NCBI GenBank assembly: GCA_900617105.1
Contig: UYFQ01000010.1
Span: forward strand, 124,001-188,000
Length of the DNA: 64,000 bases
DNA from: Hydrurus foetidus
Taxonomy: Eukaryota
Reading direction: 5' to 3'
Shown here: piece after piece, positions 870-54,047 of the stretch
Numbering within the stretch: the first letter of the stretch is position 1
Layout: every line of letters begins with the position of its first letter
Notes under the pieces: generated by a model
The model's input: the letters and a program-made list of their open reading frames with translations, nothing else
Databases searched by the model: none
Told to the model about the DNA's origin: nothing
Position numbers and translations under genes: made by a program

Positions 870-2009
870 TTATCTTTTTTTCTTCACGAAATTGGTGAGC
901 TGGCTGGCGAGGTCATCCATTTGCAGCAGAGTCTGGCGCCATTGTTGTGCGGCCAGTGACCATTCCGCCAGCGGCAAGTCGCCCCAACGGATGGCGTTGG
1001 GGGCGGATGCCGACGCAGCTGCAGTGCCATTCCAGGCATGGTGCGCAGCGCGCAAGGAAGCTGGCGCCTGCATCTGGTCCAGCAGCGCGCCCAGTTTGTC
1101 GGCGTGGGCGCCATCGTCCTGCGGGTAGATGTGCCACAGCCAGGGTTTGCCGGCCCAGATCGCGCGCACCAGCGAGTCCTCGCCCCTTACCAGGTTCAGG
1201 TCGCAGGTCCACAGCAGTTCGTCAAATTCGGGTTGGGTTAATGGCTCCAGCCAGTGCAGTGCCAGAGCGTCAGCGCCGGTGGTTGGCAGATCCATCTGCG
1301 CCAACGCAGATTGCACTGTGCGCTGGGCCCGGCCCGGCGTGACCAGCAGCAGCGTGGGCGTGGCGCCTTCCACCAGGCCTTGCAGCAGGTTGGTGAGCGC
1401 GGGTGGTTCGTAGCAAAACAGCGAGACCAGGCGTTGACCTTGCCAGATAACGCCTTTCTGCGCCAGCCAGGCCCGGCGTGCAGCGTCATCAAACGCGGCT
1501 TGACGTGCCAAGTAGTCCGACTCACGCAACAGGCCGCCAGTGCGTGGTGTGAAGCCGGGGTAAGAGAAATGCTTGGTCCAGCCCTGCCCCGGGCCCTGCA
1601 TGACGGGCGAGGGCAGGGCGTGGCAGCGCTCCACATAGGCCTCGGCCGACAGGTACTCCAGGTTGATCCACACCGGTGGTTTATGCTTATTTTGGCCTCT
1701 AGCCCCCGTATTCATTACGCGAGCAGCTATGAATTCAGGAGCAATCTCGCAGCCAAAGCCTTCTACCCACACGTCGGCCTGAGGCAGTTCTTCCAGTACC
1801 TCTGGCGTTTGCGCATCCGCCCAATCGCGCACCTGCACGCCGGGCCAGCTGCCCCCAACTGCGCCGGGGGCCATCCAGGCCAGGGCGCTCTTGTCGTCTA
1901 CCCACAGGCGCACCGTGTGGCCGCGGCGGGCCAGGTCAGCGCACAGGCGCCAACAAACGCCGATGTCGCCAAAGTTGTCGATGACCTTGCAGAAAATATC
2001 CCATTGCAT
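870..2009 (-). CDS. earP: EF-P arginine rhamnosyltransferase
   Basis: MQWDIFCKVIDNFGDIGVCWRL, WINLEYLSAE and NLVRGEDS motifs; upstream of efp. Confidence 0.95.
   Translation of the reverse strand: MQWDIFCKVIDNFGDIGVCWRLCADLARRGHTVRLWVDDKSALAWMAPGAVGGSWPGVQVRDWADAQTPEVLEELPQADVWVEGFGCEIAPEFIAARVMNTGARGQNKHKPPVWINLEYLSAEAYVERCHALPSPVMQGPGQGWTKHFSYPGFTPRTGGLLRESDYLARQAAFDDAARRAWLAQKGVIWQGQRLVSLFCYEPPALTNLLQGLVEGATPTLLLVTPGRAQRTVQSALAQMDLPTTGADALALHWLEPLTQPEFDELLWTCDLNLVRGEDSLVRAIWAGKPWLWHIYPQDDGAHADKLGALLDQMQAPASLRAAHHAWNGTAAASASAPNAIRWGDLPLAEWSLAAQQWRQTLLQMDDLASQLTNFVKKKR
1699..1743 (+). repeat. Dispersed 45-bp motif, copy 1 (inside earP, antisense)
   Basis: CTAGCCCCCGTATTCATTACGCGAGCAGCTATGAATTCAGGAGCA. 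Confidence 0.9.
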
Positions 2010-9308: not shown

Positions 9309-9353
9309 TGCTACAAAATTAGTAGCGTTCCCCGCTTGTAATACGGGGGCTAC
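9309..9353 (-). repeat. Dispersed 45-bp motif, copy 2 (intergenic)
   Basis: Reverse complement: GTAGCCCCCGTATTACAAGCGGGGAACGCTACTAATTTTGTAGCA. Confidence 0.85.
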
Positions 9354-9651
9354 AGGCCGAAATGGTCTGTAAGCCAGTGTCGCCACTGGCTTGCTTTTCA
9401 GGTGCAAACGCAATATCGGCCCTGCGGTTTTGGGTGCTGCTTAGACAAGCCGTACGGTACGTGGTGGACAGAACCTGCAAGCGAGTTTTCTCCTTTGTCT
9501 CCTTTGTCTCCATCGCCTCCATGTATCAGCCCCTCGAAGTCTCCGTGTGGAGTCGCCGTTTTGGTGAGCACATTGCCGCATGTATGCCAAAGTCCAAAAA
9601 TCGAACAAAACACCAATTACAATAAAATCACCAGAAAAAGTCAGCTCCGGC

Positions 9652-9966
9652 GTGACCACTGCAGACCCCCGCCCCTACCTGCCCGCCAAAGATGTGGCTC
9701 GGCAATTGAAGGTTTCCACCAACACCATCAGGCTGTGGACCGACAAAGGCTTACTCCCCTGCGAAACCGCGCTGGGAGGCCATCAGCGCTTTTTGCGCAC
9801 CGAGGTCGAGAAAATCATGAAAACCCAAAGCGCTGATGAAGCGAAAAAATCGCCGTCGATTTTGATCTGTGAAGACGATGTCGATCTGGCCCAGACCATT
9901 GCCGAGGGCGCTGAAGGCTGCCTGCTTCAACCCCTTCGTATCAAGGACGCCCCATGCCCACATTGA
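9652..9966 (+). CDS. Excisionase/MerR-like HTH protein with an internally deleted receiver domain (paralog of 10519-11100; possibly a pseudogene)
   Basis: YLPAKDVARQLKVSTNTIRLWTDKGLLPC...GGHQRF; the REC domain lacks 79 codons; start uncertain (GTG 9652). Confidence 0.7.
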   Translation: MTTADPRPYLPAKDVARQLKVSTNTIRLWTDKGLLPCETALGGHQRFLRTEVEKIMKTQSADEAKKSPSILICEDDVDLAQTIAEGAEGCLLQPLRIKDAPCPH

Positions 9967-10518: not shown

Positions 10519-11100
10519 ATGCGCGTGGCCAGACCAAACCTCAGTTCCTACCTAACCGCCAAAGACGTTGCCCGTGAATGGATGGTTTCCACCAACACGA
10601 TCAGGCTATGGACCGACAAAGGCTTGCTCCCCTGCGAAACCACGCTGGGTGGCCATCGGCGCTTTTTGCGCAGCGAGGTCGAGAAAATCATCAAAACCCA
10701 AAGCGCTGTTGAAGCGAAGAAATCGCCGTCGATTTTGATCATTGAAGACGAGGTCGATCTGGCCCAAACCATTGCCGATGGTTTGCAAGAGGCTGTGCCC
10801 GGCATGGAGGTACTGGTGGCCAATGACGGTTTTTCGGGCGGCTTGAAGGCCAGCCTGCACACGCCAGACTTTGTGTTGCTCGATTTGATGATGCCGGGCC
10901 TCAATGGCATTGAGGTGTGCCGCATGCTCAAGCAAGAGGCGCACACCCAGCATGCGCGGGTCATTGCCTACACCGGCCAGGCCACTGAAGCGCAAATGCA
11001 AGCGGTGATTGCCGAGGGTGCAGAAATCTGCCTGCTCAAACCCCTTCGTATTTCGCGACTCCTGCAAGCCATAGGCCTTGGCAAAGGCATCAGCAACTAG
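10519..11100 (+). CDS. Response regulator with N-terminal excisionase/MerR-like HTH
   Basis: HTH followed by REC: ILIIEDE, LLDLMMPG, LLKP. Confidence 0.88.
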   Translation: MRVARPNLSSYLTAKDVAREWMVSTNTIRLWTDKGLLPCETTLGGHRRFLRSEVEKIIKTQSAVEAKKSPSILIIEDEVDLAQTIADGLQEAVPGMEVLVANDGFSGGLKASLHTPDFVLLDLMMPGLNGIEVCRMLKQEAHTQHARVIAYTGQATEAQMQAVIAEGAEICLLKPLRISRLLQAIGLGKGISN

Positions 11101-11400: not shown

Positions 11401-12633
11401 ATGCGATCAAAGATTGCCGACATCGAGGCCCTGAGGGTCCACCGCACCCAGTCGGCCGACGACCCCAGCAGCCTGTTGCACCCATTGCAGGTGCATCAGG
11501 TTGAGGTGGAGGTCCAGAATGAGGAACTGCGCCGTGTCCAGGCAGAGTTGCAACTGGCCCACGATCTTTTCTTCGATCTCTACGAGCTTGCCCCGGTTGG
11601 CTATTGCACGCTGAACAAAGAGGGAAAAATAGAGCGCATCAACCTGACCGCTTGTCAGTTGCTGGGCATGAACCGCAGTGCGCTCTTGGGGACCTACATC
11701 TTCCGCCGCCTCTTCGACGAAGATCAGCAATACTTCCATCAGTTACTGCAAAAGCAAGAAGTTGGAGTACCGAAAAATTCGCTGCTGAGAATGCGAATGG
11801 CCGATGGGTTACCGCTTTGGCTACATTGGGTTAGCCGCACCGAGTTGGATGTAAATGGCGAGTGGGTTTGGAAACTGGTTCTGACCGATGCCACTGAACT
11901 TCATCAGGCGCAAGAAGCGCAGCGCCGGTTGACAAGCGAGCTCAATACCCAGGTTCAAAACCTGAAGCTGTTGACGAAAGAGCTCACCCAATCCGAGCAA
12001 CTCGAACGCCACGCCTTGGCGGAAGACCTGCACGACAACTTTGCCCAATGGCTGGCTGCCATCAAAATTAATCTGGCTACCGTGGTCAATCTGGAAGGGA
12101 CTGCGTTGGTTGAGTCCGTCGGCAAGATGGACACTTTGCTGGGCCAGGCGGATGACGCACTGCGATCCTTGATCTACGAACTCAGCCCGCCCTCGCTCAC
12201 AGAGCTGGGTTTGGGGGCGGCCTGGGGGCATCTGATCAAGCTGCTGAGAAATTCGTATGGCCTGGTGGTTGTGCTCAACGACCAGGCTGCGCCCAAACTA
12301 TTGGACGAAGTGCGCAGCATCGTCGTTTACCGCTGCGTGCGTGAACTGCTGGTGAACGTAGCCAAACATTCGGGTGTCAAGCGGGCAGAACTCAGCTGCG
12401 TATTGACGAACGGCCAAATGGTGGTTGCGGTGAGCGACGATGGCTGCGGTTTCGATCCACTGCGCGTCAGTCAGTCGCGTCAAGCTACGGGGCGCTTCGG
12501 GTTGCAAGGCCTGCAGCGACGACTGTCGGCCATTCAAGGCAGCGTGGAAATTGACAGTGCGATGGACAAAGGCTGCCTGGTTGTACTTTCTGTGCCCATC
12601 CGCAGCGGCGCCCCTCAGAAGGTTTTTCCATGA
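11401..12633 (+). CDS. PAS-domain sensor histidine kinase (HisKA_3, NarX-like)
   Basis: PAS (YELAPVGYCTL), LAEDLHDN, ELLVNVAKHS, DDGCGF, FGLQGL. Confidence 0.9.
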   Translation: MRSKIADIEALRVHRTQSADDPSSLLHPLQVHQVEVEVQNEELRRVQAELQLAHDLFFDLYELAPVGYCTLNKEGKIERINLTACQLLGMNRSALLGTYIFRRLFDEDQQYFHQLLQKQEVGVPKNSLLRMRMADGLPLWLHWVSRTELDVNGEWVWKLVLTDATELHQAQEAQRRLTSELNTQVQNLKLLTKELTQSEQLERHALAEDLHDNFAQWLAAIKINLATVVNLEGTALVESVGKMDTLLGQADDALRSLIYELSPPSLTELGLGAAWGHLIKLLRNSYGLVVVLNDQAAPKLLDEVRSIVVYRCVRELLVNVAKHSGVKRAELSCVLTNGQMVVAVSDDGCGFDPLRVSQSRQATGRFGLQGLQRRLSAIQGSVEIDSAMDKGCLVVLSVPIRSGAPQKVFP

Positions 12634-13280
12634 TTCGAATTGTGCTCGTGGATGACCACACGGTGGTGCGCGAAGCCCTGCGTATTTTGCTGGAGCAAGA
12701 CGCTGAGTTGAGTGTGGTGGGTGAGGCCGGGGACGGCAAATCTGCGCTCCAAATGACCGCAGAGCTTCAGCCTGATCTGGTCGTGATGGACATCAGCCTG
12801 CCCGGCATGGATGGTATCGAGACCACGTCGGTTCTGCGCAAGTCACAGCCGCAGGTGCGCGTGCTGGCCCTGTCAACCAGTTGCCATGCAAGTGCGATCA
12901 AGCAGATGTTTCAGGCGGGAGCCACCGGTTTCATTGTCAAGTCCGCTGCGGCAGTGGCGCTCAAGCACGGCATACGCGCTGTGATGCAGGGTGGCAACTA
13001 CCTGTGTCCCCAGGCAGCGCAGGCCATTGCGGATGATCTGTCAGACCTACCGAGCACCTCCACAGAAACTCTCGCACAGCAACTGTCGCGGCGCGAACTC
13101 GAGGTAGCCATTGCCTTGGCCCAGGGCGGTAGCGCCAGCGTGGTGGCCGGCCAATTGCACATCGCAGAGAGCACCGTCGAGGTGCACCGGCGCAACATAC
13201 TGCGCAAGCTTGGTCTGCATAAATCTGTCGACCTCACGCGCGTCCTGATGCAGGCTGGCCTACTCTTACCAAAAAATTAG
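12630..13280 (+). CDS. NarL/FixJ (LuxR-type) response regulator
   Basis: LVDDH, VMDISLP, LSRRELEV...STVEVHRRNILRKLG; overlaps the kinase stop codon. Confidence 0.92.
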   Translation: MIRIVLVDDHTVVREALRILLEQDAELSVVGEAGDGKSALQMTAELQPDLVVMDISLPGMDGIETTSVLRKSQPQVRVLALSTSCHASAIKQMFQAGATGFIVKSAAAVALKHGIRAVMQGGNYLCPQAAQAIADDLSDLPSTSTETLAQQLSRRELEVAIALAQGGSASVVAGQLHIAESTVEVHRRNILRKLGLHKSVDLTRVLMQAGLLLPKN

Positions 13281-23047: not shown

Positions 23048-24073
23048 ATGAAAAAGCCCCCCAGCGCTCACCCACTCGACAGCCCAGTCGGTCAGCGTAG
23101 CGCGGGGCTGGGTTTGGAGTCAAATATGCCTCTAGCCCCCATGGAGTCTGCGCCAGCAGCTCCTGAAATCATAGCGGCCGTCGAGCTGAATCGCCTTGCC
23201 CGCGAGGTGCAGCCCGGCGATGAATCGGCCGATGCGCTGTCCATCTACCTGCGTGGCGTGCGCCGCACCACGCTGTTCACTCCCGAAGAAGAGTTTGCCG
23301 CCGCCACCCGCGCCCGGGCCGGTGACTTTGAGGCACGGCAAAGCATGATCGAGCACAACCTGCGCTTGGTGGTCAGCATTGCGAAGGGCTACACCGGGCG
23401 GGGCGTGCCCATGTCCGACCTGATCGAAGAGGGCAACCTGGGGCTGATGCACGCCATCGACAAGTTCGAGCCCGAGCGCGGCTTTCGCTTTTCTACCTAC
23501 GCGACCTGGTGGATACGCCAATCGGTGGACCGCGCGCTGATGTACCAAGGCCGCGCAGTGCGACTGCCGGTGAACGTGGTGCGCGAGGTGCAGCAGGTGC
23601 TGCGCGCACGCCGGGCGCTGGAAAACGACGCTGCGCTGGTGGCCAGACGCCCTGAGGGCATCCGCGCGGAAGACATTGCGCACCTGTTGGGGCGTGAGTC
23701 GTCCGACATTGTGGATTTGCTCGCCATGGCCGAGACACCCCGCTCGCTGGACGCTTCGCTGGACCCGTCGGGCGACGAGCATTCACTGGGCGACAGCCTG
23801 GTGGACGAGCTGGCGCTGGACCCCGAGGACTCGGCCCAGGCCCACGAGGTAGACACGCTGCTGGAAAGCTGGATTGCCACACTCTCGCCGCGCGAACGCG
23901 AGGTGCTGGAGGGCCGCTTTGGCCTGCATGACCGCGAGCCCGAGACGCTGGACGTGATCAGCAGCCGCTTGGGTCTGACGCGCGAGCGCGTGCGACAGGT
24001 GCAAAACGAGGCGCTGTTCAAGCTCAAACGCCACCTGGCCCGTCGCGGCATCAAGCGCGAATTTCTGATGTAG
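23048..24073 (+). CDS. rpoS: RNA polymerase sigma factor RpoS-like
   Basis: [39 protein letters not shown]; downstream of nlpD; start approximate. Confidence 0.88.
23132..23176 (+). repeat. Dispersed 45-bp motif, copy 3 (in the rpoS N-terminus)
   Basis: CTAGCCCCCATGGAGTCTGCGCCAGCAGCTCCTGAAATCATAGCG. Confidence 0.88.
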
Positions 24074-24120
24074 CTCGCAGGCCCCCGCGGGCCTTGCTGC
24101 GTACCTGAGACAATTCAGCC

Positions 24121-25641
24121 ATGAGCGACGCAATTTCCCCCGACACCCTTTCCCCTATTTCCCCCGAAACCCCGACCGAACCCGCACTGCCCGAAGGCTG
24201 GCTGCGCGTCAAATCGCTGGACCTGGAGGCCCAGGGCGTGGCCCATCGGCCGGATGGCAAGGTGGTGTTCATTGACGGCGCGTTGCCGTTTGAGGTGGTG
24301 AGCGCCCAGATTCACCGCAGCAAAAGTAGCTTTGAGAAAGGCACGCTGACCGAGATCCACCGCGAATCCTCCCAGCGCGTGCGCCCGGCCTGCCCACACT
24401 TTGGCCTGCATGAAGGCGCGTGTGGAGGTTGCAAGATGCAGCACTTGCACGTGAGCGCTCAGGTGGCGGTGAAGCAGCGCGTGCTGGAGGACAACCTCTG
24501 GCATATCGGCAAGGTCAAGCCCGACAACATCCTGCGCCCCATCGAGGGCCCGGCCTGGGGCTACCGCTACCGCGCACGCCTGTCGGTGCGCCATGTACGC
24601 AAAAAGGGCCAGGTACTGATTGGCTTCCATGAGCGCAAGAGCCGCTACGTGGCCGACATGAAGGAATGCCATGTGCTGGCGCCCCATGTGAGCGCCATGC
24701 TGGTGCCACTGCGCCGCCTGATCGAGTCCATGGACGCGATCGAAACGCTGCCGCAGATCGAGCTGGCCATGGGCGATATGGCCCCCACGGCGGGGGCCAA
24801 CGGCGGTGCGGGGGAGGTGATCGCCATGGTGCTGCGCCACCTGGAGCCGCTGTCCGACGGCGACCTGGAACGTTTGCGCCAGTTCGCGGCGATCAACCCT
24901 GGCCTGCAGTGGTGGCTGCAGCCCAAGGGGCTGGACACCGTGCACCGCCTGGACGAGCTGCCCGGCCACAGCACAGGCCAGCTGGCCTACCAGCTGCCCG
25001 ACTTTGGCATCACCATGCCGTTTCGCCCCACCGACTTCACCCAGGTGAACCCCCACATCAACCGCGTGCTGGTGTCGCACGCGCTGGGCCTGCTAGCGGT
25101 GCAAAAGACCGAACGTGTGATCGACTGGTTCTGCGGCCTGGGCAACTTCACGCTGCCGCTGGCCACGCAGGCGCGTGAAGTGCTGGGCGTGGAGGGCGCC
25201 GAGGCGCTGGTGGTGCGTTCGCGCGAGAACCTGGCGCTGAATGTGGCGGCTGGTTTAGAGTCAAATAACCCTCTAGCCCCCGTCAATCCTGCGCTAGCAG
25301 CTACAAAATTCGTAGCGCGCAACCTGTTTGAGATGACGCCTGAGTTGCTGATTGGCGATGGCACAGCCGACAAGTGGCTGGTCGACCCACCCCGCGAAGG
25401 CGCGTTCTCCCTGGTGCAGGCCTTGGCCGCCCTGCACCAGCAGCCAGAGCTGCGCAAAGGCTGGACGCCACCCCAGCGCATTGTCTACGTGAGCTGCAAC
25501 CCGGCCACGCTGGCGCGCGATGCGGGTGTGCTGGTACAAGAGGCGGGCTACCGCTGTACCAAAGGGGGCGTGGTGAACATGTTCCCCCATACGGCGCACG
25601 TGGAGAGCATTGCGGTGTTCGAGCTGGCTGAAGCGGCCTAA
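24121..25641 (+). CDS. rlmD: 23S rRNA m5U1939 methyltransferase
   Basis: TRAM domain, CPHFG..CGGC Fe-S motif, [25 protein letters not shown]. Confidence 0.94.
25273..25317 (+). repeat. Dispersed 45-bp motif, copy 4 (inside rlmD)
   Basis: CTAGCCCCCGTCAATCCTGCGCTAGCAGCTACAAAATTCGTAGCG. Confidence 0.9.
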
Positions 25642-33074: not shown

Positions 33075-33896
33075 ATGAAACCGCCCGCTAAAAGGGGGAC
33101 GTGGGGCGGAGCCGGGCGTTGGCTATGGGCCACGCTGGCTGGATCGTTCCTGCTGATAGCCGCGTTCGCGGCACACGCTGATGTGCCGTCCACGCTGGTG
33201 CTGGGCACGTCGCGCCCCGATAACACCTATGCGGGCCGCCTGCTACGCCGCACTTACCAAGAGCTCTTCAGCCGCCTGGGCATTCCGTTGGAGATTCGCA
33301 CCACCCCCGCCGCACGCCTGAGTCTGGAGCTGGCGTCAGATCGCATTGATGGCGACGTGGCGCGGCCGCTGGCGTTTGCCGAAAGCCAACCCGGCTTGGT
33401 CCGCATCGATGAGCCGATTCTTTCCATCGGCTTTGCGCTGTGGGCCGTTAACCCCAAATACACGCTGCAGCGGCTGGACCAGCTAGCGGACTCAGGTTGG
33501 TCGGTGAACTTCACGCGCGGAGTGGTGGAGTGCGAACGGCTATTGCAAAGCCTGCTGCCCGCCAGCCGCATTGTGGACGTGACGACCACCATCAACGCCC
33601 TGAACCTGTTGCACCACGGGCGTAACGACCTGCATTGCGGCATTGATGTGGCGGTCTGGTCCGACGCTGGCAGCCCGGAGTTGGTCGGCATGCCGCCGCC
33701 GATCAAGGTACTCGGCATTGGTGACCCTCTTCCGCTGTATTTTTACCTGCAACGCAAGCACGCCGCTTTGCTGCCGCAGATAGAAACCACGCTGAGAAAA
33801 ATGAAGGCGGAGGGGTTGCTGGAGCAGTACCGCAAAGAGGCGATGGTGGAGTTCAAGCTGCTGCCAGCTCCCAAGCCAGCGGCGGCAGGCCGTTAA
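33075..33896 (+). CDS. Periplasmic substrate-binding protein (family 3-like)
   Basis: GGAG RBS, signal peptide, RIDGDVAR, YFYLQRKH...LRKMKAEG. Confidence 0.75.
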   Translation: MKPPAKRGTWGGAGRWLWATLAGSFLLIAAFAAHADVPSTLVLGTSRPDNTYAGRLLRRTYQELFSRLGIPLEIRTTPAARLSLELASDRIDGDVARPLAFAESQPGLVRIDEPILSIGFALWAVNPKYTLQRLDQLADSGWSVNFTRGVVECERLLQSLLPASRIVDVTTTINALNLLHHGRNDLHCGIDVAVWSDAGSPELVGMPPPIKVLGIGDPLPLYFYLQRKHAALLPQIETTLRKMKAEGLLEQYRKEAMVEFKLLPAPKPAAAGR

Positions 33897-33911
33897 GAAT
33901 GAAATAGGGCT

Positions 33912-33956
33912 CTAGCCCTTGTTTTCATTGCGCGAGCAGCTACGAAAACGATAGCA
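33912..33956 (+). repeat. Dispersed 45-bp motif, copy 5 (overlaps the DUF1513 stop)
   Basis: CTAGCCCTTGTTTTCATTGCGCGAGCAGCTACGAAAACGATAGCA. Confidence 0.9.
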
Positions 33957-35064: not shown

Positions 35065-36130
35065 CGGCGTCGGTAAAGCCCATGCTGATGTGCAGCACGG
35101 TGTCGGCCAGGCTGCCGAGGAACTGTGAGAGCTGGGCCAGCGCGTGTTGCGCCGTGCGCAGTGACGCGGCGTTGTCGGGCCGCGCATGCGCACCGCTGCG
35201 CAGGGCCGCCAGGGTGAGGCGTTGCAGCTGGCGGCTGGGTTGGGGCGTGTCGTTGCCCAGCAGCAGGCCTTGCAAGCTGCCGGCCACCGGCCAGTCGGGC
35301 CGTGCGGCCTGTGCGGCAGCTGACCCGACCAGAAAGGCTTGTACGCCCTGGAGCTGGGCCTGCCAGGCGGCAGTGGTTTGCCCGCTGACGCCGCGCACCC
35401 AGAGTGAGACTTCCTTGCCACGCGTATCGGGCACCATCTTCTTGATGCGCAGCTGGTCCAGCCCGCCCACGGCCTGGCCATACCACTCGCCATAGAGTGC
35501 GGCGGCCTCGTCTTCGCTGCGTGCCGCCGCGGCAATGGCGCGGTAGCCGTCCAGCAAGACGGTGCATTCGTTCAGGATGTGCTGCGCCAATAGCTGGGCG
35601 TAATGTTGGCTGGATGGGTTGGCGGGCAGGCGCCAGAACATCCACTCCAGCGCTGGCAAGCCCCGGGCTGCGCTGCCCACCGATTCGATCTGCTCCGGCG
35701 TCAGGGGGCTGGCTGCGTTGGCATCCAGCTGGCGCTGAATTTGCGCGGGTCGCGTGGGCCAAAAATCGATAGACCGTGCGGCGCGGCGCTCCAGCAACGG
35801 CCCGACGGCCACGGCAGCCAAGCGCTCCCAGTGCAACATGGTTTGCACCCACAGAGGTTGCTGGGCTTGCCAGTGCGTGGCGGGTTGGGCCAGCGACTGG
35901 TAAAGGGCCGTCGCGCTTTGCTGCAGGGCTTCGGCCACCGGAATGTAGTGGCCCTGCAAGAGCGCCAGCACGCGCTGGCGTGCGGACAGGAAGGGACCGG
36001 TGGAGGCGGAGGTACCAGCGAAGCTGTCAAACGAGACTGGATTTGCTACGTTTTTAGGAGCTGCTCGCGCAATATCCATAAGGGCTAGCGTGCCAAAAGG
36101 CATGCAAGCGAGAAGCGTGCGTCGTTTCAC
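35054..36130 (-). CDS. Imelysin-like protein
   Basis: IDFWP, RGLPALEW, GFTDADGD C-terminus. Confidence 0.85.
   Translation of the reverse strand: MKRRTLLACMPFGTLALMDIARAAPKNVANPVSFDSFAGTSASTGPFLSARQRVLALLQGHYIPVAEALQQSATALYQSLAQPATHWQAQQPLWVQTMLHWERLAAVAVGPLLERRAARSIDFWPTRPAQIQRQLDANAASPLTPEQIESVGSAARGLPALEWMFWRLPANPSSQHYAQLLAQHILNECTVLLDGYRAIAAAARSEDEAAALYGEWYGQAVGGLDQLRIKKMVPDTRGKEVSLWVRGVSGQTTAAWQAQLQGVQAFLVGSAAAQAARPDWPVAGSLQGLLLGNDTPQPSRQLQRLTLAALRSGAHARPDNAASLRTAQHALAQLSQFLGSLADTVLHISMGFTDADGD
36044..36088 (-). repeat. Dispersed 45-bp motif, copy 6 (in the imelysin signal peptide)
   Basis: Reverse complement: CTAGCCCTTATGGATATTGCGCGAGCAGCTCCTAAAAACGTAGCA. Confidence 0.9.
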
Positions 36131-39815: not shown

Positions 39816-39955
39816 GCACCGCGACTGCCCAGGAGCACACCCAGCTGAGTTTGCGCCCTCGCAGCAAGCCCTCCAGCCCCGTGCTGGCCTGGCGCACGCC
39901 CCTTGCGGTGCAATTCGAAACGATCAATGCACACGACTCTACTTTGGTATAAAAA

Positions 39956-41236
39956 ATGCCCATAGCCCCTGTCAACAATGCGCAAGCAGCTATCGAAAAG
40001 ATAGCATTTGGAGGTCCGTCCATGCCGGTTAATGAACACAGCCACAGTGGTTTTTGCCACCATGAGACTGCTGCGGCCCCAGCGCAGGGCTCTCGGCGCA
40101 AACGCCTCTGGGATTTGGGCCACCAGTGCCATTGCCCGCTGGTGGGGGTGAGCCTGCCCATGGATGTGTTGCACCGACTGGTCAACAAAGCGCTAGGTGG
40201 CAGTGCCGTTGCCAATGACTACGAGGTGCACGCCGGTGCTGTGTCTGAATGTGCGCGACGCTCCAAGCTGTCGGAGCTGATGCAGGCCGAACTGGATACG
40301 CGGTATACGCGCGAGATTCAATGGTTCAAGACGGCCAGGAGCACCCTGGCGGTGGCCGATAGCTGGATCAAGTCGCTGAAGGCGGGGGATGTGGCGGGTG
40401 CCTTCTGGGCGGCCCTGACGCACCCGCGTTGCGACGCGTCGTTGCAAGAGGCCATGTGCAGAGACCTGCACATGTTCCAGCACCAAGCGGGCGCGGGCCT
40501 GCGCCTGGAGATGACGCGCTTCAATGCGTTGGCAGAAGAAAACGCCGTGCTGACCCGTGAGCTGGGCAAGGTGCAGGAGCGCATCACGCGCGTCATCGGC
40601 CAGAAGACAGCGGACATTGAGCGCCTGAACGCGCTGCTGCTGCAGGCACGGGCGGATGCCATTGCCAAGGACAGCCGCATCAGCTTCATGGCCCAGGATC
40701 TGGAGGCCTTGCAGGCGTTCATTCCCCAGCTCGAAGACAAGCAGCGCCTGCAAAAGAAGGTAGACCAAATGGCCCAGCGCCAGTTGGAGCTGGAAGGGCA
40801 GAACGCAGAGTTGCGGCGCAAATTGGCGGTGGCCGAGAAGGCCTCCGTGGGCACAGTGCCGCGTGAGTCGGCGCCCAGCTTGGAAGGGAATGCGCTGGTC
40901 GGCGTGCAGGCCATGGTGATCCAGCTGCACCAAAAGATGGTGCTGTGCGTGGGCGGGCGCAGCGGCAACATTGCCAACTACCGTGACGTGGTCGAACGCG
41001 TCGGCGGACGCTTTGCACACCACGATGGCGGGGTGGAAGACAACGCCTCGGTGCTGGACGCCAACCTGGCTGCCGCGGATTTGGTGATCTGCCAGACCGG
41101 CTGCATTAGCCACAACGCGTATTGGCGCGTCAAAGACTTTTGCAAGCGCACCGGCAAGCGTTGTGTGTTCGTGGAGAACCCCAGCGCATCGTCTTTGGAG
41201 CGTGGGTTGGCGTTGTCAGAGGGCGTCGTTCCGTAG
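39956..41236 (+). CDS. DUF2325 domain protein (original start possibly 39812)
   Basis: Coiled coil, then VLCVGG...HHDGG.E...ADLVICQTGCISHNAYWRVKDFCKRTGK. Confidence 0.85.
   Translation: MPIAPVNNAQAAIEKIAFGGPSMPVNEHSHSGFCHHETAAAPAQGSRRKRLWDLGHQCHCPLVGVSLPMDVLHRLVNKALGGSAVANDYEVHAGAVSECARRSKLSELMQAELDTRYTREIQWFKTARSTLAVADSWIKSLKAGDVAGAFWAALTHPRCDASLQEAMCRDLHMFQHQAGAGLRLEMTRFNALAEENAVLTRELGKVQERITRVIGQKTADIERLNALLLQARADAIAKDSRISFMAQDLEALQAFIPQLEDKQRLQKKVDQMAQRQLELEGQNAELRRKLAVAEKASVGTVPRESAPSLEGNALVGVQAMVIQLHQKMVLCVGGRSGNIANYRDVVERVGGRFAHHDGGVEDNASVLDANLAAADLVICQTGCISHNAYWRVKDFCKRTGKRCVFVENPSASSLERGLALSEGVVP
39962..40006 (+). repeat. Dispersed 45-bp motif, copy 7 (DUF2325 N-terminus)
   Basis: ATAGCCCCTGTCAACAATGCGCAAGCAGCTATCGAAAAGATAGCA. 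Confidence 0.88.
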
Positions 41237-42040: not shown

Positions 42041-42658
42041 ATGCCTCCTGCCAAGCGAACCCCCAAACCACCCCCCAAGCCCTACCACCACGGCAACCTG
42101 CGTGAAACCCTGCTGGCTGCGGCCGACACCGTGCTTGCCGAGCGCGGCGCCCAAGGTCTCACGCTGCGCGATGTGGCCAAGGCCGCGGGCGTGTCGCACG
42201 CCGCGCCGTACCACCACTTTGCCAGTCTCAACGATCTGCTGGCCGCCGTGGCCGAGCGCGCGTTTGGCGTGCTGGCCCAGGCGCTGGAACAGGCCGCTGC
42301 CGAGCCCGATACCGCCGAGCGCATGCTAAAAATCAACGACGCTTACGTGGCCTGCGCGCTGGCCCGCCCGGCCCAGTTCCGCCTGATGCTTGGCCCGCTG
42401 CTGGCGCGCAAGCAGGACTATCCCGAGTTCAAAGTTGCGGCCGAACGTGCCTTTGGCGTGGTGCTGGCCGCCGCCTGCGCCCACGACCCAAAGCGCGGCC
42501 CCGAGCTGGCGCTGACCGGCTGGAGCCTGGCCCACGGCCTGAGCAACCTGCTGATCGATGGCGCGCTGGAAGGGTTGCCAATTACTGTGGGGCCGGTCGA
42601 AGGATTGGCGCGGCAGCTGGCGTTGCGTGGCCTGGGGCTTGCAGGGGCGGTTGCATGA
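42041..42658 (+). CDS. TetR/AcrR family regulator (WHG type)
   Basis: YHHGNLR, LTLRDVAKAAGVSHAAPYHHF, WSLAHG. Confidence 0.92.
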   Translation: MPPAKRTPKPPPKPYHHGNLRETLLAAADTVLAERGAQGLTLRDVAKAAGVSHAAPYHHFASLNDLLAAVAERAFGVLAQALEQAAAEPDTAERMLKINDAYVACALARPAQFRLMLGPLLARKQDYPEFKVAAERAFGVVLAAACAHDPKRGPELALTGWSLAHGLSNLLIDGALEGLPITVGPVEGLARQLALRGLGLAGAVA

Positions 42659-42692
42659 TCCAGCACTACCTGCAAGCCGCCTTCCGCTGGCA

Positions 42693-42787
42693 GCGTGGCC
42701 GCCAGGGCACAGCGTGACCCGCGTGGTGGGCGGCAGCCGCTATGCGCTGCCGCTGGGTTGGGTGCTGCGGGCGCAGGCCCGATAATC
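42693..42787 (+). repeat. 95-bp direct repeat, left copy
   Basis: 87/95 identical to 46704-46798 by manual alignment. Confidence 0.9.
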
Positions 42788-42807
42788 CACCCTGCGCAAG
42801 CCGCCGT

Positions 42808-42928
42808 GGTCGACAAGGCCGCATGTGAACTGGTTTTCAAGGGTCTGGAGCAGCCCAGTGGCTACACCGAGCCGTTGCAGGACGTTTGGCGTTTGAAGGT
42901 GCAGGCTGCGCAAGGAAACTTCGGATAA
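42808..42928 (+). pseudogene. glcB: Malate synthase G C-terminal fragment
   Basis: [20 protein letters not shown]...WRLK matches the recalled GlcB C-terminus. Confidence 0.7.
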
Positions 42929-42941
42929 TGACTGCACAAGT

Positions 42942-42986
42942 AGCTACATAATTGATAGCTGCTCGCGCAAATTTCACGAGGGCTAC
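42942..42986 (-). repeat. Dispersed 45-bp motif, copy 8 (intergenic)
   Basis: Reverse complement: GTAGCCCTCGTGAAATTTGCGCGAGCAGCTATCAATTATGTAGCT. Confidence 0.9.
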
Positions 42987-42994
42987 AGGCCATT

Positions 42995-43366
42995 TCAGTG
43001 CTGATCAAACGCAGCATCGGCAACATCCAAGCGATCGAACACGGCCAACCCCTTGTGCACATCCCCGGTGGCGGCCATGGAACGGAAATGGTTCTCGGTA
43101 TCCCACGTAGCCAGCGCGCGGGCGCTGAGCTGCTCCACCAGCTTGTTCATGGACGGGCTCAGCTTTACGCCAGCGATTTGGGCCGCTGCGCCGTGTCGTT
43201 GGGTAATCGTATTGTCAAAGTGCTCATAACCATTCTGGCCTGGAGCTGTTGCTGCGCTACTGCGCCCGCCACAGTTTTCAAACGTCCAGGCGTGGATGAA
43301 TGCTCCGTATGCCGCATCCCAGCGAACTAATGAACAAATCGCCGGATAGGAGCCTTCAACAATCAT
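42995..43366 (-). CDS. Hypothetical protein (may be a fragment)
   Basis: 123-aa ORF downstream of mazF; no recognised motif. Confidence 0.35.
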   Translation of the reverse strand: MIVEGSYPAICSLVRWDAAYGAFIHAWTFENCGGRSSAATAPGQNGYEHFDNTITQRHGAAAQIAGVKLSPSMNKLVEQLSARALATWDTENHFRSMAATGDVHKGLAVFDRLDVADAAFDQH

Positions 43367-43408: not shown

Positions 43409-43777
43409 TCAGACGCAGATCGAAATGATCCCGTTCAACTCTTCGCATGCCGATTCAAATACCGCTGGAAGCACTTGTTTCCAAGCGTGCGGTCGAGCGC
43501 CACGATCGCGCCAAGCGAATGACTTCGGTTGATGTGCCAGCACGTAGCAGACCTCGCCCTTTGGTGATGTGAACTTGACGGCAAAAGGGTTGGTTTCGTT
43601 GCTGGGTGCATGGGTCATCGGTAGGCCAATAACGAGATTTGTACGCTCGTTAAACGCCTTGGAAGACAACACCAACATAGGGTGCTCATCCTTCATTTCC
43701 GCACCAACCTGCGGATTGAAATTTATCCAGATCATGTCGCGCCGATCCGGCACCCAAAGCTTGCTCGGAGTCGCCAT
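43409..43777 (-). CDS. mazF: PemK/MazF family toxin
   Basis: WVPDRRDMIWINFNPQVGAEM..HPMLVLS...FN. Confidence 0.9.
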   Translation of the reverse strand: MATPSKLWVPDRRDMIWINFNPQVGAEMKDEHPMLVLSSKAFNERTNLVIGLPMTHAPSNETNPFAVKFTSPKGEVCYVLAHQPKSFAWRDRGARPHAWKQVLPAVFESACEELNGIISICV

Positions 43778-44536: not shown

Positions 44537-44601
44537 AACCCATGGTCAAATCGACCTTAAGTCCTTGTCAAACCCTGATAGTTTGCTATCAAATTCATAA
44601 C

Positions 44602-46138
44602 ATGCCTATTTCATATCGCTCGCTGAAAACACTCACCGTGAGCGCCCTGGCCGTGGTGGGCCTGTGCTTGTCCGCCCAAGCGCAAGCCCCGCTGGACGTG
44701 CGTATCGCGCTGGTGATTGGCAACTCGGCCTACGCCGGTGCGCCGCTGGTCAACCCGGCCAACGATGCACGCGCCATGAGCGAGACTTTGCGCGGTTTGG
44801 GCTTCACGGTGGTTGAGCTGCGCGACGCGCAAAAGATGCAAATGGCGGATGCGATTGCCAAAGTGCGTGACTCGCTCAAGGGCAAACAAGGCGTGGGTAT
44901 GCTGTATTACGCTGGCCATGGTTTGCAATTGGACTGGCACAACTACATGGTGCCGGTGGATGCCAGAATGAGCAAAGCCGCCGACGTGGCCGAGCAGGCC
45001 GTAGACATCAACACGGTGATCGATGCTTTCAAGGACGCGGGTAACCGCATGAACATCTTAGTGCTGGATGCCTGCCGCGACAACCCGTTTGCAGGCACCA
45101 CCACCGGCAAAGGCCTGGCGCAGCTGGACGCGCCTCCAGGCACGTTTCTGGCCTATGCCACCGCGCCAGGCAATGTGGTGGAGGATGGGGATGTCAAGAG
45201 TGGCAAAGGGCTGTACACCCAGTTTTTGCTCGAGGAGCTGAAGAAGCCTGTTTCCTAAATTGAAGACGTGTTCAAGGGGGTGCGTTTGCAGGTCAGGCAA
45301 AAAAGCCAGGGGCGGCAAATTCCCTGGGATTCCACCAGCTTGGAGGATGACTTTTTCTTCAATACTGGCAAGGTGATGGCTGTGGCCAAGCCCGACGAGA
45401 AATTGCGGGAAGTCGCCTTCAATACCGAGAAGAGCGATTGGGACAAGGTCAAGGACAGTAAAAACGCGACTGATTTGTACGCGTTCCTGCGGAAATATCC
45501 CAACGGCAATATCAGTGAGCTCGCGCAGGCACAACTGGAGCGGCTTGATCGCGCCAAAACCATCGCGCTGCCTGATCGCAACGGCGAAATACAGAGCGCT
45601 GTTGCTTTGCGCTTCAGGCTGGGCGACACCTACGAATTCGCCATCAAAGATGGCTTGACGGGCGTCACAAGGACCCTTTCTACGGCAGTCGTCACAGCCG
45701 TTACAGATGGGCGCGTCGACCTCACCGGTAGTTTTGGTCCCAACTCTCGGGGCGCTGCCACGGTGGCCGGAGTAATCATTAGTCCCGGTGGGGATACTTA
45801 TGACCCGCCGTTCACACAGATACCGAGGGGCGAATATCAGGTTGGCAAGAAGTGGAGCGGCCGTTCAAACCGAACCTCCGAAAGCGGAAAAACGGGATGG
45901 ATGGAATACCAGGGGCACATCCAGGCCTACGAAAAGGTACAAGTTGCGGCTGGAACTTTTGACGCTTACAAAATCCAGATGGATTTTCAGTTCGACAACG
46001 GCTTGCGACGTAAAACCACGCTGGGCACAGCCTGACTGGGGTCTGCCCATGAAGATGGTCATTGAATCGCGGCCAAGATCTGAGTCATTGGATGTTCTTG
46101 TTCGCGAGATGCTCTCACGTCGGCGAACTAACAGCTGA
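44602..46138 (+). pseudogene. Secreted caspase-like (peptidase C14) protein, disrupted
   Basis: Signal peptide, RIALVIGNSAY, YYAGHG, LDACR; in-frame TAA at 45256-45258; frameshift near 46020. Confidence 0.8.
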
Positions 46139-46148
46139 TTCAGATGGC

Positions 46149-46620
46149 TACTCAATAGCCATCAGCACACGGGATGGTGGCACATCGTTCAAACACCGCA
46201 GATGCCCTTTGCCCTCCGGCAGCGGACAAACGCGAGAAAGATACGGCGCGCAGTCCCATGGCGGCTAGTACGCCTTGTCGTTCTTGAGCCATATCACGGT
46301 GGCTTCTAAGCTGAGCGGCGGCGTATGCAAGGGGCTGCTCGAACCAAAGATAGCGACTTGCAGCACGCCAAAAGCATCGGCCAAGTGCATCAGACCAGAA
46401 TCGTTGCTCACTATATTTTTAGTAGCAGATATCGCAATAAAAGCGAGGACTAGTGAGGTTTTCCCTGTCGAATTGGTGAGCCAGATCGGCATAGGGCGCA
46501 GTGGGCCAGCGCTTGAACGGCCCGTATTCGGCACCCGGCGCAAACACGTAATATCGACCGCGGTTCAGGCCCATTTGCGCCAGGGCGATGGTGGCGTCTG
46601 CTTCGTTAATGTGCAGGCGT
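46149..46620 (-). pseudogene. waaF: LPS heptosyltransferase II, 3' fragment
   Basis: FAPGAEYGPFKRWP, SNDSGLMH, FGSSSPLHTPPL, GHLRCL; contains a deletion, frameshifts and a stop. Confidence 0.8.
46409..46453 (-). repeat. Dispersed 45-bp motif, copy 9 (degenerate, in the waaF fragment)
   Basis: Reverse complement: CTAGTCCTCGCTTTTATTGCGATATCTGCTACTAAAAATATAGTG; same register as the other copies. Confidence 0.65.
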
Positions 46621-46703
46621 GGCTGGTCAGTGTCTGAACGCGCCTTTGGCGTGACGCCGAGCTGGAGGGGCTGCCGATTCCTGTGGGGCCTGGCGAAGGG
46701 CTG

Positions 46704-46798
46704 GCGTGGCCGCCAGGGCACAGCGTGACCCGCGTGGTGGGCGGCAGCCGCTATGTGTTGTCGCTGGGCTGGGTGTTGAAGGCGTAGGCCCGATAATC
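46704..46798 (+). repeat. 95-bp direct repeat, right copy (includes GATAAT just before rlmB)
   Basis: Matches 42693-42787; translates as [22 protein letters not shown], like a 2OG-Fe(II) oxygenase C-terminus. Confidence 0.9.
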
Positions 46799-46803
46799 GG
46801 GGC

Positions 46804-47586
46804 ATGTCATCTCCCAAAGTGCTATTCGGCTTTCACGCCGTGGGCGTGCGCCTGAAGACCGCCCCCAAATCCATCATCGAAATCTTCTACGAGCCCACGC
46901 GACGCGATGCGCGCATGCGCCAGTTTCTGGAGAAAGTCGCTGAAGCCGGTATTCGCGTGGTCGAAGCTGACGGCATGCGCCTGGCCAAGATTGCCGGCAG
47001 CCATGGCCACCAGGGCGTGGCCGCCCGCGTGCAAGAGATCAAGCAAGTCCATTCGCTGGACGAACTGCTGGAAAACCTGGAAGCCGCCAACGCCGAGCTA
47101 CCCGCAGACCAGCGCACCAACCCGCTGATCCTGGTGCTGGACGGCGTGACCGACCCGCACAACCTGGGCGCCTGCCTGCGTGTCGCCGATGGCGCGGGCG
47201 CGCACTGTGTGATCGCCCCCAAGGACCACGCCGCTGGCATCAACGCTACCGTGGCCAAGGTGGCCAGCGGCGCGGCTGAGACTGTGCCGTACTTCATGGT
47301 GACCAACCTGGCGCGCACGCTCAACGAGCTGAAAGAACGCAACATCTGGATCATCGGCACCAGCGACCAGGCAACTGGCACGTTGTACCAGGCTGACTTG
47401 AAAGGCCCCGTGGCCCTGGTGCTGGGCGCCGAAGGCGACGGCATGCGCCAGCTCACCGCCAAGACCTGCGACCAGCTCGTCAGCATCCCCATGCAAGGCG
47501 CGGTGGAAAGCTTGAACGTGTCGGTGGCTAGCGGTGTGTGTCTGTACGAGGCGCTGCGCCAACGGTCCACGTCAGCGGCCAAGTAA
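46804..47586 (+). CDS. rlmB: 23S rRNA Gm2251 methyltransferase
   Basis: [35 protein letters not shown]. Confidence 0.95.
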
Positions 47587-47610: not shown

Positions 47611-47655
47611 TGCTACGAAATCAGGAGCTGCTCGCGCATATTCGACGGGGGCTAT
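47611..47655 (-). repeat. Dispersed 45-bp motif, copy 10 (intergenic)
   Basis: Reverse complement: ATAGCCCCCGTCGAATATGCGCGAGCAGCTCCTGATTTCGTAGCA. Confidence 0.9.
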
Positions 47656-48098
47656 AGCCGCTTTTCGCTTCTTGGTCAGCACCCGGGCGTAGCAAAACAA
47701 GATCAGCCTCGCCATCCAGAACCGGACCAGCACGAACGGCGTGCTGAACGACAACCTGAACATGCAAGCCGATCCGGACGAGAAGAAGGTGCACTTCGAG
47801 ATCAGCGACTGCGGCGCTAACTACAACTTTTTCGAGAACCCACGCTGAGTGCTTGGTGGTGGTCGCCAGTACCACAGCCAAGAATCACTGCAGTATCTGC
47901 TGCCACCCCGCAAGGCATAGCCGCCTTTTCCGCGGTTGGAGTGGTGACTCGATCGCTGCGCTAGCGTTTGCTGGCGTTTGGGATTTGACGGGTTGAACAA
48001 AACGAGTGCCTAGAACGGGCTCTTCAACAGACTGGTTCTGCCTCGGCGCCAAGACGCCCGCAGACGGGATGCAGACCTTCGCTGTGCTCAAAAGCAGC

Positions 48099-48429: not shown

Positions 48430-48490
48430 CTCAATGTACCCCGCAAAGCATTGCGGGAAAAAGTGGGAGTTTGGTCTGTCAAAAATGGCA

Positions 48491-48535
48491 TTTGCCTATA
48501 TCCAGCCTGCCCAAGCTGCTCTCATAAAAATAGCG
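48491..48535 (+). repeat. Dispersed 45-bp motif, copy 11 (degenerate)
   Basis: TTTGCCTATATCCAGCCTGCCCAAGCTGCTCTCATAAAAATAGCG; upstream TCAAAAATGGCA is also in register. Confidence 0.55.
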
Positions 48536-53858: not shown

Positions 53859-53903
53859 TGCTATGAAATAAGGAGCTTCTTGCGCAATGGATACGGGGGC
53901 TAG
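53859..53903 (-). repeat. Dispersed 45-bp motif, copy 12 (fills most of the thiolase-fadB spacer)
   Basis: Reverse complement: CTAGCCCCCGTATCCATTGCGCAAGAAGCTCCTTATTTCATAGCA. Confidence 0.9.
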
Positions 53904-53917
53904 AGGCCTAAAACGTC

Positions 53918-54047
53918 TCAAAGTCTCTCGACAATGGTGGCAATGCCCATGCCGCCGCCCACGCACAGTGTGGCCAAGCCGTAGCGCAGTTTGCGTCGGT
54001 GCAGCTCGTCAATCAGCGTGCCCAGAATCATGGCGCCCGTGGCGCCT

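Follow-up and report, generated by a model that had tools for sequence, protein, structure and literature searches.

A dispersed 66-bp DNA motif underlies a peptide shared by RpoS and RlmD and is a candidate protein-binding site in Comamonadaceae

Motif copies in the window

The window, the whole 64-kb stretch of DNA analysed here, contains the neighbouring genes rpoS (23048..24073, + strand) and rlmD (24121..25641, + strand), the latter encoding the 23S rRNA U1939 methyltransferase. RlmD scored above the cut-off of its NCBIfam model, and RpoS, whose start was inferred from orthologues, matched its best NCBIfam model (TIGR02394) with 363 bits, slightly below the cut-off of 378.7. An earlier note on this DNA had pointed out a peptide shared by the two proteins, which was indeed found in both open reading frames exactly as quoted. 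It coincides with two copies of a DNA motif, whose length, previously given as about 65 bp, was measured as 66 bp. The rpoS copy (23111..23176, + strand) is read in the sense frame as codons 22-43 of the N-terminal extension, and the rlmD copy (25252..25317, + strand) covers the loop and the next strand that follow the VLGVEG motif in the methyltransferase domain. Both copies are identical at 52 of 66 nt. Eight additional codons of rlmD (25243..25266, + strand) contain the left part of the tract that is common with the rpoS copy.

A weight matrix, seeded on four copies and iterated to convergence, found 12 strong copies and one weak copy in the window, and no match in ten Markov shuffles of it. 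Three intact genes carry a copy in the sense frame, namely rpoS, rlmD and a gene of the imelysin family (36044..36109, − strand, at the N-terminus). One copy is read in antisense, namely that in earP (1678..1743, + strand), a gene on the opposite strand, and it had been absent from the earlier list. That list comprised five sense-oriented coding copies, of which those in rpoS, rlmD and the imelysin-like gene stand, but the remaining two do not. The copy at the DUF2325 gene (39941..40006, + strand) lies before the likely gene start and is probably non-coding, with GGAGG being located 7 nt ahead of the second ATG (40022) and none ahead of the ATG at 39956. The other one (46409..46474, − strand) belongs to a waaF-like gene that is broken: it is situated in the C-terminal piece, and the upstream piece stops at a stop codon within the motif; in the former piece, 60 residues align with 60 positions of the NCBIfam profile. 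Avoidance of TAG stops, which had been proposed as the reason for the common frame, accounts for the choice only partly, since 57 of 133 copies have a further frame without stops, yet 4 copies use it.

The other copies are located outside of genes or at their ends. Two are intergenic (9309..9374 and 47611..47676, both − strand), one lies between thiolase and fatty-acid oxidation genes (53859..53924, − strand) and one between convergent genes, overlapping the ends of both (33891..33956, + strand). A further copy lies at a gene 3′ end (42942..43007, − strand) and a weaker one close to a gene 3′ end (48470..48535, + strand). The weak possible copy (44537..44602, + strand) reached 11.5 bits.

With regard to the start of rpoS, a same-frame motif was present in four of 15 orthologues, in each case after an ATG downstream of the preceding gene, which agrees with the motif being translated. 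In these four motif-bearing orthologues, the stretch from the motif to region 1.2 is free of Met, GTG or TTG starts being possible. In the imelysin-family gene, the copy corresponds to the middle and end of an apparent signal peptide (36044-36130, − strand), which we take by eye to be of the twin-arginine type from KRR near the start, a hydrophobic stretch and A-R-A; there the DNA motif would provide the cleavage region. Sequence of the waaF-like heptosyltransferase gene is present at 46263-46817 and 42421-42840 (both − strand); the gene is broken into two frames, and a portion of its 5′ region recurs roughly 4 kb off with 79-92% identity. Near these fragments, a PemK/MazF-family toxin gene (43409-43777, − strand) adjoins a TetR gene and a caspase-domain gene. 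In addition, the window has a 259-nt direct repeat (9650-9908 and 10523-10781, 87% identity) in a BLUF/response-regulator region.

Structure and genomic distribution of the motif

All genome-wide figures were taken from relatives of the window's genome. Most of the 80 best RlmD relatives carry the label Comamonadaceae, and Rhodoferax MAGs are the nearest named ones. One of these MAGs (G001, identical to L050) holds 132 copies in 800 kb, and its reversed sequence holds none. This corresponds to one copy per 6.0 kb, compared with one per 6.3 kb in an Acidovorax genome (G004), the regions of which were partly selected for containing matches, and one per 9.1 kb in a Polaromonas genome (G194). Among 151 genomes of the family, 28 contained at least 20 strict matches and 96 none, and controls contained 0-2. 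Variovorax sp. OK212 (L069) and other Variovorax and Comamonas genomes are motif-poor, yet exhibit 8-34 matches to the core and an RlmD copy in decay, both of which may be left over from an ancestral system. In a viral collection, 32 stretches had a single match (24 including the upstream part), these being raw counts not normalised to the host. A plasmid match to the rlmD copy was not found.

The motif has a fixed length of about 66 bp and consists of the core GCTAY-N7-RTAGC and two upstream blocks. In the 132 copies of the Rhodoferax MAG, information spans position -13 to about 53 at constant spacing. The motif content amounts to 52-67 bits. There are three AT-rich centres spaced by about 22 bp, and the main A/T period is 23-24 bp; a period of 10.5 bp as the main one was rejected. 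The core dyad has two invariant bases, T-N11-A, each present in 100% of the 132 copies, and T-N11-A is also the form of the LysR box. A second, weaker dyad lies two helical turns from the core dyad. Across Rhodoferax, Acidovorax and Polaromonas the right dyad, GCTAY-N7-RTAGC, is identical, whereas the middle dyad varies by genus, being a near-perfect inverted repeat in Acidovorax and imperfect in the two other genera. In all three, neither dyad exhibited complementary covariation beyond the column frequencies, and a search against Rfam yielded no match to the motif but only two tRNAs and two sub-threshold matches. A role as hairpin or structured RNA is therefore unsupported. These data also bear out the earlier statement that the motif is not a long palindrome, as there are only two short dyads and no covarying hairpin.

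Fragments of this motif have been described before. The available portion of Tong et al. (2017; PMC5217627) reports unexplained spaced motif pairs in Rhodoferax ferrireducens, Acidovorax ebreus and Polaromonas naphthalenivorans, with 20-60% of them within genes. In R. ferrireducens, CTAGC with GCTAT at 22 and TGCTA with TAGCA at 9 have the spacing of the motif, and the pair of A. ebreus also matches it; the P. naphthalenivorans pair (Table 7 there) could not be placed in the motif. In contrast to the motif, what that portion describes are separate five-letter pairs, with no single element, no link across genera and no effect on proteins. Beyond this work, no published description of the assembled 66-bp motif was found in a search that had most subscription journals and bioRxiv supplements outside its reach. 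We conclude that the motif is real, family-wide and partly glimpsed in print.

Within the Rhodoferax MAG, 54 of the 132 copies lie within called genes, 63 are intergenic and 15 run across gene ends, 13 of the latter at 3′ and 2 at 5′ ends. The in-gene copies are read in the sense frame (25), the antisense frame (19) or other frames (10). Orientation appears to be of no importance, with 24 copies in one and 22 in the other orientation in co-oriented spacers. Divergent spacers hold only 4 of the 63 intergenic copies, although they make up 95 of 375 spacers (p 1e-4), and convergent spacers hold 13 of the 63 (p 0.03). As genes were called with a simple caller which missed at least one gene (earP), one of the four copies in divergent spacers probably sits in this missed earP. 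Copies are distributed more evenly than expected at random (CV 0.80, p 0.004), the smallest spacing being 348 bp, and neither tandem arrays nor close inverted pairs were found in this genome. Copies are sparser in bins of low GC content (rho 0.51, 40 bins of 20 kb), low GC serving as a proxy for acquired DNA. Five genes of this genome, mutL, mutS, comEC, hpnE and cbiB, have two motif copies each (L106, L110, L100, L094 and L084).

Chromosome signals such as KOPS and the SlmA/Noc sites are replichore-polar or excluded from the terminus. A strand polarity or terminus exclusion of the motif, hinted at by 51 matches, disappeared with denser lists: among the matches listed, 90 are forward and 103 reverse in Acidovorax G004 and 58 and 81 in G011, and matches are also present opposite dnaA. 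A search for a dif-like pattern found nothing in five genomes, and the genes beside divergent or close copies included no candidate factor.

Persistence of the motif and its effect on host proteins

Motif positions are largely stable. In pairwise comparisons of three genomes with 87-88% identity (G004, G180, G089), 41 of 42, 33 of 40 and 41 of 50 syntenic sites were kept. Nine sites are missing between G180 and G089: the length is unchanged at five of them and reduced by 54 bp at one. In addition, the number of copies in one spacer is two, one or zero, depending on which of the three genomes is considered. Such gain or loss of whole copies in spacers fits insertion as well. Orthologous copies (114 pairs) have an identity of 0.81 at high-information positions and of 0.51 at low-information positions. 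In the motif-poor Acidovorax G199, compared over 120 kb, only two of 21 sites remain, and among the 19 lost sites five kept their length within 10 bp and five are shorter by 67-104 bp, the latter being likewise compatible with insertion. Copies within the Rhodoferax MAG are on average identical at 35 of 66 positions and at most at 55 of 66, so that there are no young, near-identical ones. Intermediates with the core only were found in 10 of 135 cases, compared with two in the null.

The RlmD site was compared with the genome-wide core pattern, which was counted in 50 of the 80 RlmD-relative genomes. The RlmD core score follows genome-wide density (rho 0.83, 50 genomes), although p-values overstate the support here as the genomes are related. 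With rich and poor genomes separated at 7 matches per Mb, a split chosen after the counts had been seen, the codon at the position of the motif's invariant GCT reads GCT in 23 of 24 rich genomes versus one of 26 poor ones, the background share of GCT among the other Ala codons being 10%. The residue at this site is Ala in all 24 rich genomes and Pro in 23 of 26 poor ones. Parsimony on a tree that was obtained by a quick search only, with the loop left out, gives nine switches between rich and poor, and starred branches make at least four of them necessary. Pro is the residue of those motif-poor groups that lie inside rich clades (L002-L004; L056 together with L080), with Ala in L064, L072 and L079 and Ser in L067 as exceptions. 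The RlmD copy fits the matrix of its own genus best in 17 of 24 genomes, but not in the other seven. From these sequence comparisons, it appears that selection acts on the DNA at the RlmD site. The view that the peptide common to RpoS and RlmD is dictated by the DNA motif and not by kinship of the proteins is upheld. RlmD orthologues that lack the motif but carry the same peptide, which the earlier note had named as evidence to the contrary, were found in part, as most of the C-terminal peptide (LAPTxFVARNLF) is retained in such orthologues.

The motif mostly overwrites existing codons rather than inserting new ones. The RlmD segment from the EG to the NLF anchor could be parsed in 75 of 80 orthologues. 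It has 33 aa in 49 of these, irrespective of a strong, decayed or absent motif, and in order-level orthologues it has 25-26 aa in 27 of 30. These lengths suggest a gain of about seven residues in the family, compared with 22 for insertion of a whole motif. At the copy, the RlmD of the window is longer by 16 residues than the solved structure from E. coli. Alignments with solved structures revealed no gap at the copy in MutL, one residue in DusA and eight additional residues each in EarP and YfiH. Spans relative to NCBIfam profiles in 49 host proteins exhibit approximately zero excess for many and +15 to +31 for few. The latter, CobS, CobU, YfiH, GluQRS and ComEC, extend 15-31 aa beyond their profiles, which speaks against a binding site; the excess could be located at the site only for YfiH (+8), the MutL excess lies elsewhere, and the GluQRS alignment omitted the motif site. 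Flanking repeats of 2-8 nt, looked for at 49 end offsets in 133 copies, provided no clear excess and thus no sign of target duplication. The earlier idea of a motif creating protein sequence is hence true to a modest extent (+7 or +8 in RlmD, EarP and YfiH, and the eight RlmD codons of the window), but not for MutL, DusA and WaaF with 0 to about 1 residue.

The eight extra codons of the window's rlmD belong to these gains. The RlmD loop of the window has 41 aa compared with a modal 33, and the difference lies exactly at the tract shared with rpoS, which begins exactly at the left edge of the element. At positions -13 to 16, the two copies are identical at 27 of 30 nt. None of 8,778 control pairs from the Rhodoferax MAG reached this value at these positions (mean 13.8), the best of 300 sense-frame control pairs reached 24, and the matrix gives an estimate of 2e-7 to 6e-7 per pair, ignoring frame constraints. 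If any 30-nt window is allowed, 34 of the 8,778 pairs reach 27. The right halves of the two copies are unremarkable (25 of 36 identical). Contigs of runs X3 (16 differences) and X12 (58 differences) span the site of the extra codons without a gap, and in the relative L001 ESN-x-PLAP is already encoded by the copy in rpoS. Contigs of run X1 match the window without any difference, so that this run may be its source. It is therefore likely, judging from the sequences, that the extra RlmD codons were copied from the rpoS copy, 2.1 kb apart, in one recombination event, which would explain the GLESN match highlighted in the earlier note. General local homogenisation was rejected, as the resemblance between copies at most 5 kb apart does not exceed that between distant ones (35.0 versus 34.7 of 66), and the rpoS-rlmD tract is thus regarded as a single event. 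The same RlmD loop is longer by 4-12 residues in four other lineages (L021, L045, L008 and L050), with upstream block scores in the lengthened loops being good for L008 and L021 and poor for L045 and L050.

Possible functions and alternative explanations

The constant geometry, the distance of two turns between the dyads, the use of either orientation, synonymous selection and concerted drift would together point to a double-stranded site for a multimeric protein, and the avoidance of promoters with the preference for gene ends suggests an architectural or supercoiling role. Our confidence is evenly divided on the following explanation, which we favour: the 66-bp motif would be the double-stranded binding site of a candidate multimeric DNA-binding protein that probably organises the chromosome or its supercoiling, and the shared peptide would be a consequence of it. 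New sites would be seeded by short recombination or gene conversion from existing copies, as presumably from rpoS to rlmD, and seeding would mostly replace codons rather than add them. Selection at the DNA level would then keep the sites, forcing rare codons and tolerated residue changes such as Pro/Ala in RlmD. With drifting specificity of the protein the sites would follow, and with the end of selection they would erode. The fixed register, orientation-blindness, stable positions and the decay in place or loss of sites in motif-losing genomes fit this explanation, whereas even spacing and depletion in low-GC DNA are equally compatible with an uptake signal. No such protein was found among the four families tried, as Y1 transposase, ComP, ComEC and ScpB are present in motif-rich and motif-poor genomes alike; among 55 Comamonadaceae genomes, RAYT-like genes were counted in 54, ComP-family pilins in 51, ComEC in 51 and ScpB in 55. 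In a wider formulation, held with slightly less than even confidence, the sequence data would reflect an undescribed genome-wide protein-DNA system, either a chromosome organiser or a long uptake signal, whose recombination-seeded 66-bp site would rewrite residues of MutL and RlmD, exist in genus dialects, be lost repeatedly and entail a reversible Ala/Pro switch in RlmD.

It is also conceivable, though unlikely, that the motif is a selfish non-autonomous repeat similar to REPs, MITEs or RPEs, pasted by a transposase or recombinase, with the peptide being a tolerated by-product. REPs are biased to gene 3′ ends and convergent spacers, and so are the motif copies. The presence or absence of whole copies in spacers and the start of the rpoS-rlmD tract at the left edge of the element would also fit, and a content of 52-67 bits is hard to attain via point mutation, with core-only intermediates being few. 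Yet the positions are mostly static, and covarying hairpins, target duplications, tandem arrays and young, near-identical copies were not found. Similarly, a single-copy RAYT-like gene in 54 of 55 genomes would supply a transposase, but it is also present in motif-poor genomes, and, unlike in REP/RAYT systems, it is not flanked by paired motif copies. Furthermore, synonymous codons in RlmD track genome density, which is not expected from a dead insertion.

Among such repeats, the Rickettsia palindromic elements (RPEs) had been brought forward as an analogy. Like the motif, they are dispersed repeats read in frame within unrelated housekeeping proteins on either strand, but they are palindromes of about 150 bp that are inserted as an extra peptide, according to the available text of PMC10969869, whereas the motif has 66 bp, lacks a conserved hairpin and in most cases substitutes residues, the gain being 0 to +8 aa in the proteins where it was resolved. 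At the DNA level, in-frame reading in unrelated genes is shared with RPEs and MITEs, as seen from the copies in called genes, but no long palindrome or terminal inverted repeat with conserved pairing, no full-length insertion in the proteins resolved and no target duplication was found for the motif. As a mechanism, the RPE analogy thus fails, with conserved cores in MutL, DusA and WaaF being overlaid with no or almost no indel. Betaproteobacterial repeat elements (BREs; Hot et al., 2011; PMC3110155), as far as their description was accessible, resemble the motif in being dispersed, near gene ends, sometimes within genes and in the same taxa; they differ in being about 90 bp long and tandem with four copies in R. 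ferrireducens, which would set them apart from the motif.

Rather improbable is a role of the motif in DNA uptake during natural transformation, with biased uptake driving it into the genome and its genes as for the USS of Pasteurellaceae and the DUS of Neisseriaceae. In the accessible parts of Findlay and Redfield (2009; PMC2817400) and Treangen (2008; PMC2397512), these sequences are dispersed in hundreds, often within genes, with preferred frames and changes in host proteins, and they are scarce in acquired DNA, form lineage dialects and are gained by recombination. The motif shares strong overrepresentation, occurrence on both strands and within genes and scarcity in low-GC DNA, along with its orientation-blindness, even spacing and genus dialects, and its effect on genes and proteins resembles theirs. 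Natural competence is known for Acidovorax temperans, A. facilis and Verminephrobacter eiseniae, with apparently sequence-selective uptake (PMC4212676, in part), intact ComEC frames exist, and the rlmD copy being without a plasmid match would also fit. However, the DUS core comprises 9-11 bp (PMC4212676, in part), whereas the motif is six times longer, tripartite with two dyads, and sparser with one copy per 6 kb; close inverted pairs are absent in the Rhodoferax MAG. Moreover, ComEC and ComP-family pilins (51 of 55 each) do not separate motif-rich from motif-poor genomes, and V. eiseniae, the species of the selectivity test, has only one, unrelated pair in the table of Tong et al. (PMC5217627) as available. 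The operator of a LysR-type or other ordinary transcription factor with a very large regulon is highly improbable: T-N11-A and the second, weaker dyad two turns off would suit it, but the copies avoid divergent spacers and favour 3′ ends and gene interiors, an objection also raised for two fragments in the accessible part of Tong et al. (PMC5217627).

DNA motifs known to alter the proteome of a bacterium are rare, apart from the uptake sequences in two families. The motif discussed here as a candidate binding site is far longer than uptake sequences and is present in essential genes. In genomes of this kind, part of the shared peptides and unusual codons would reflect selection at the DNA and not at the protein level. 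As motif-poor lineages are nested in rich clades, they represent natural controls, and a search for the reader appears feasible. Motif-poor genomes suited to this comparison are G199 and G188 within Acidovorax, G156-G158 next to the clade of the window, and Comamonas. If the motif were an uptake signal after all, it would account for the reported DNA selectivity of competent Acidovorax.

None of 21 RAYT-like loci was flanked by a motif pair, and in two of five loci scanned a different inverted repeat brackets the RAYT-like gene. These Y1 transposase genes (L191:3433-4200, L192 and L200; G001, G194 and G190), with a 16-41-nt inverted repeat at two loci, suggest a domesticated transposase with its own ends. 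Acidovorax G004 additionally contains other dispersed repeats of 100-170 bp (L156:10304-10470 and 12480-12651) with several matches in relatives.
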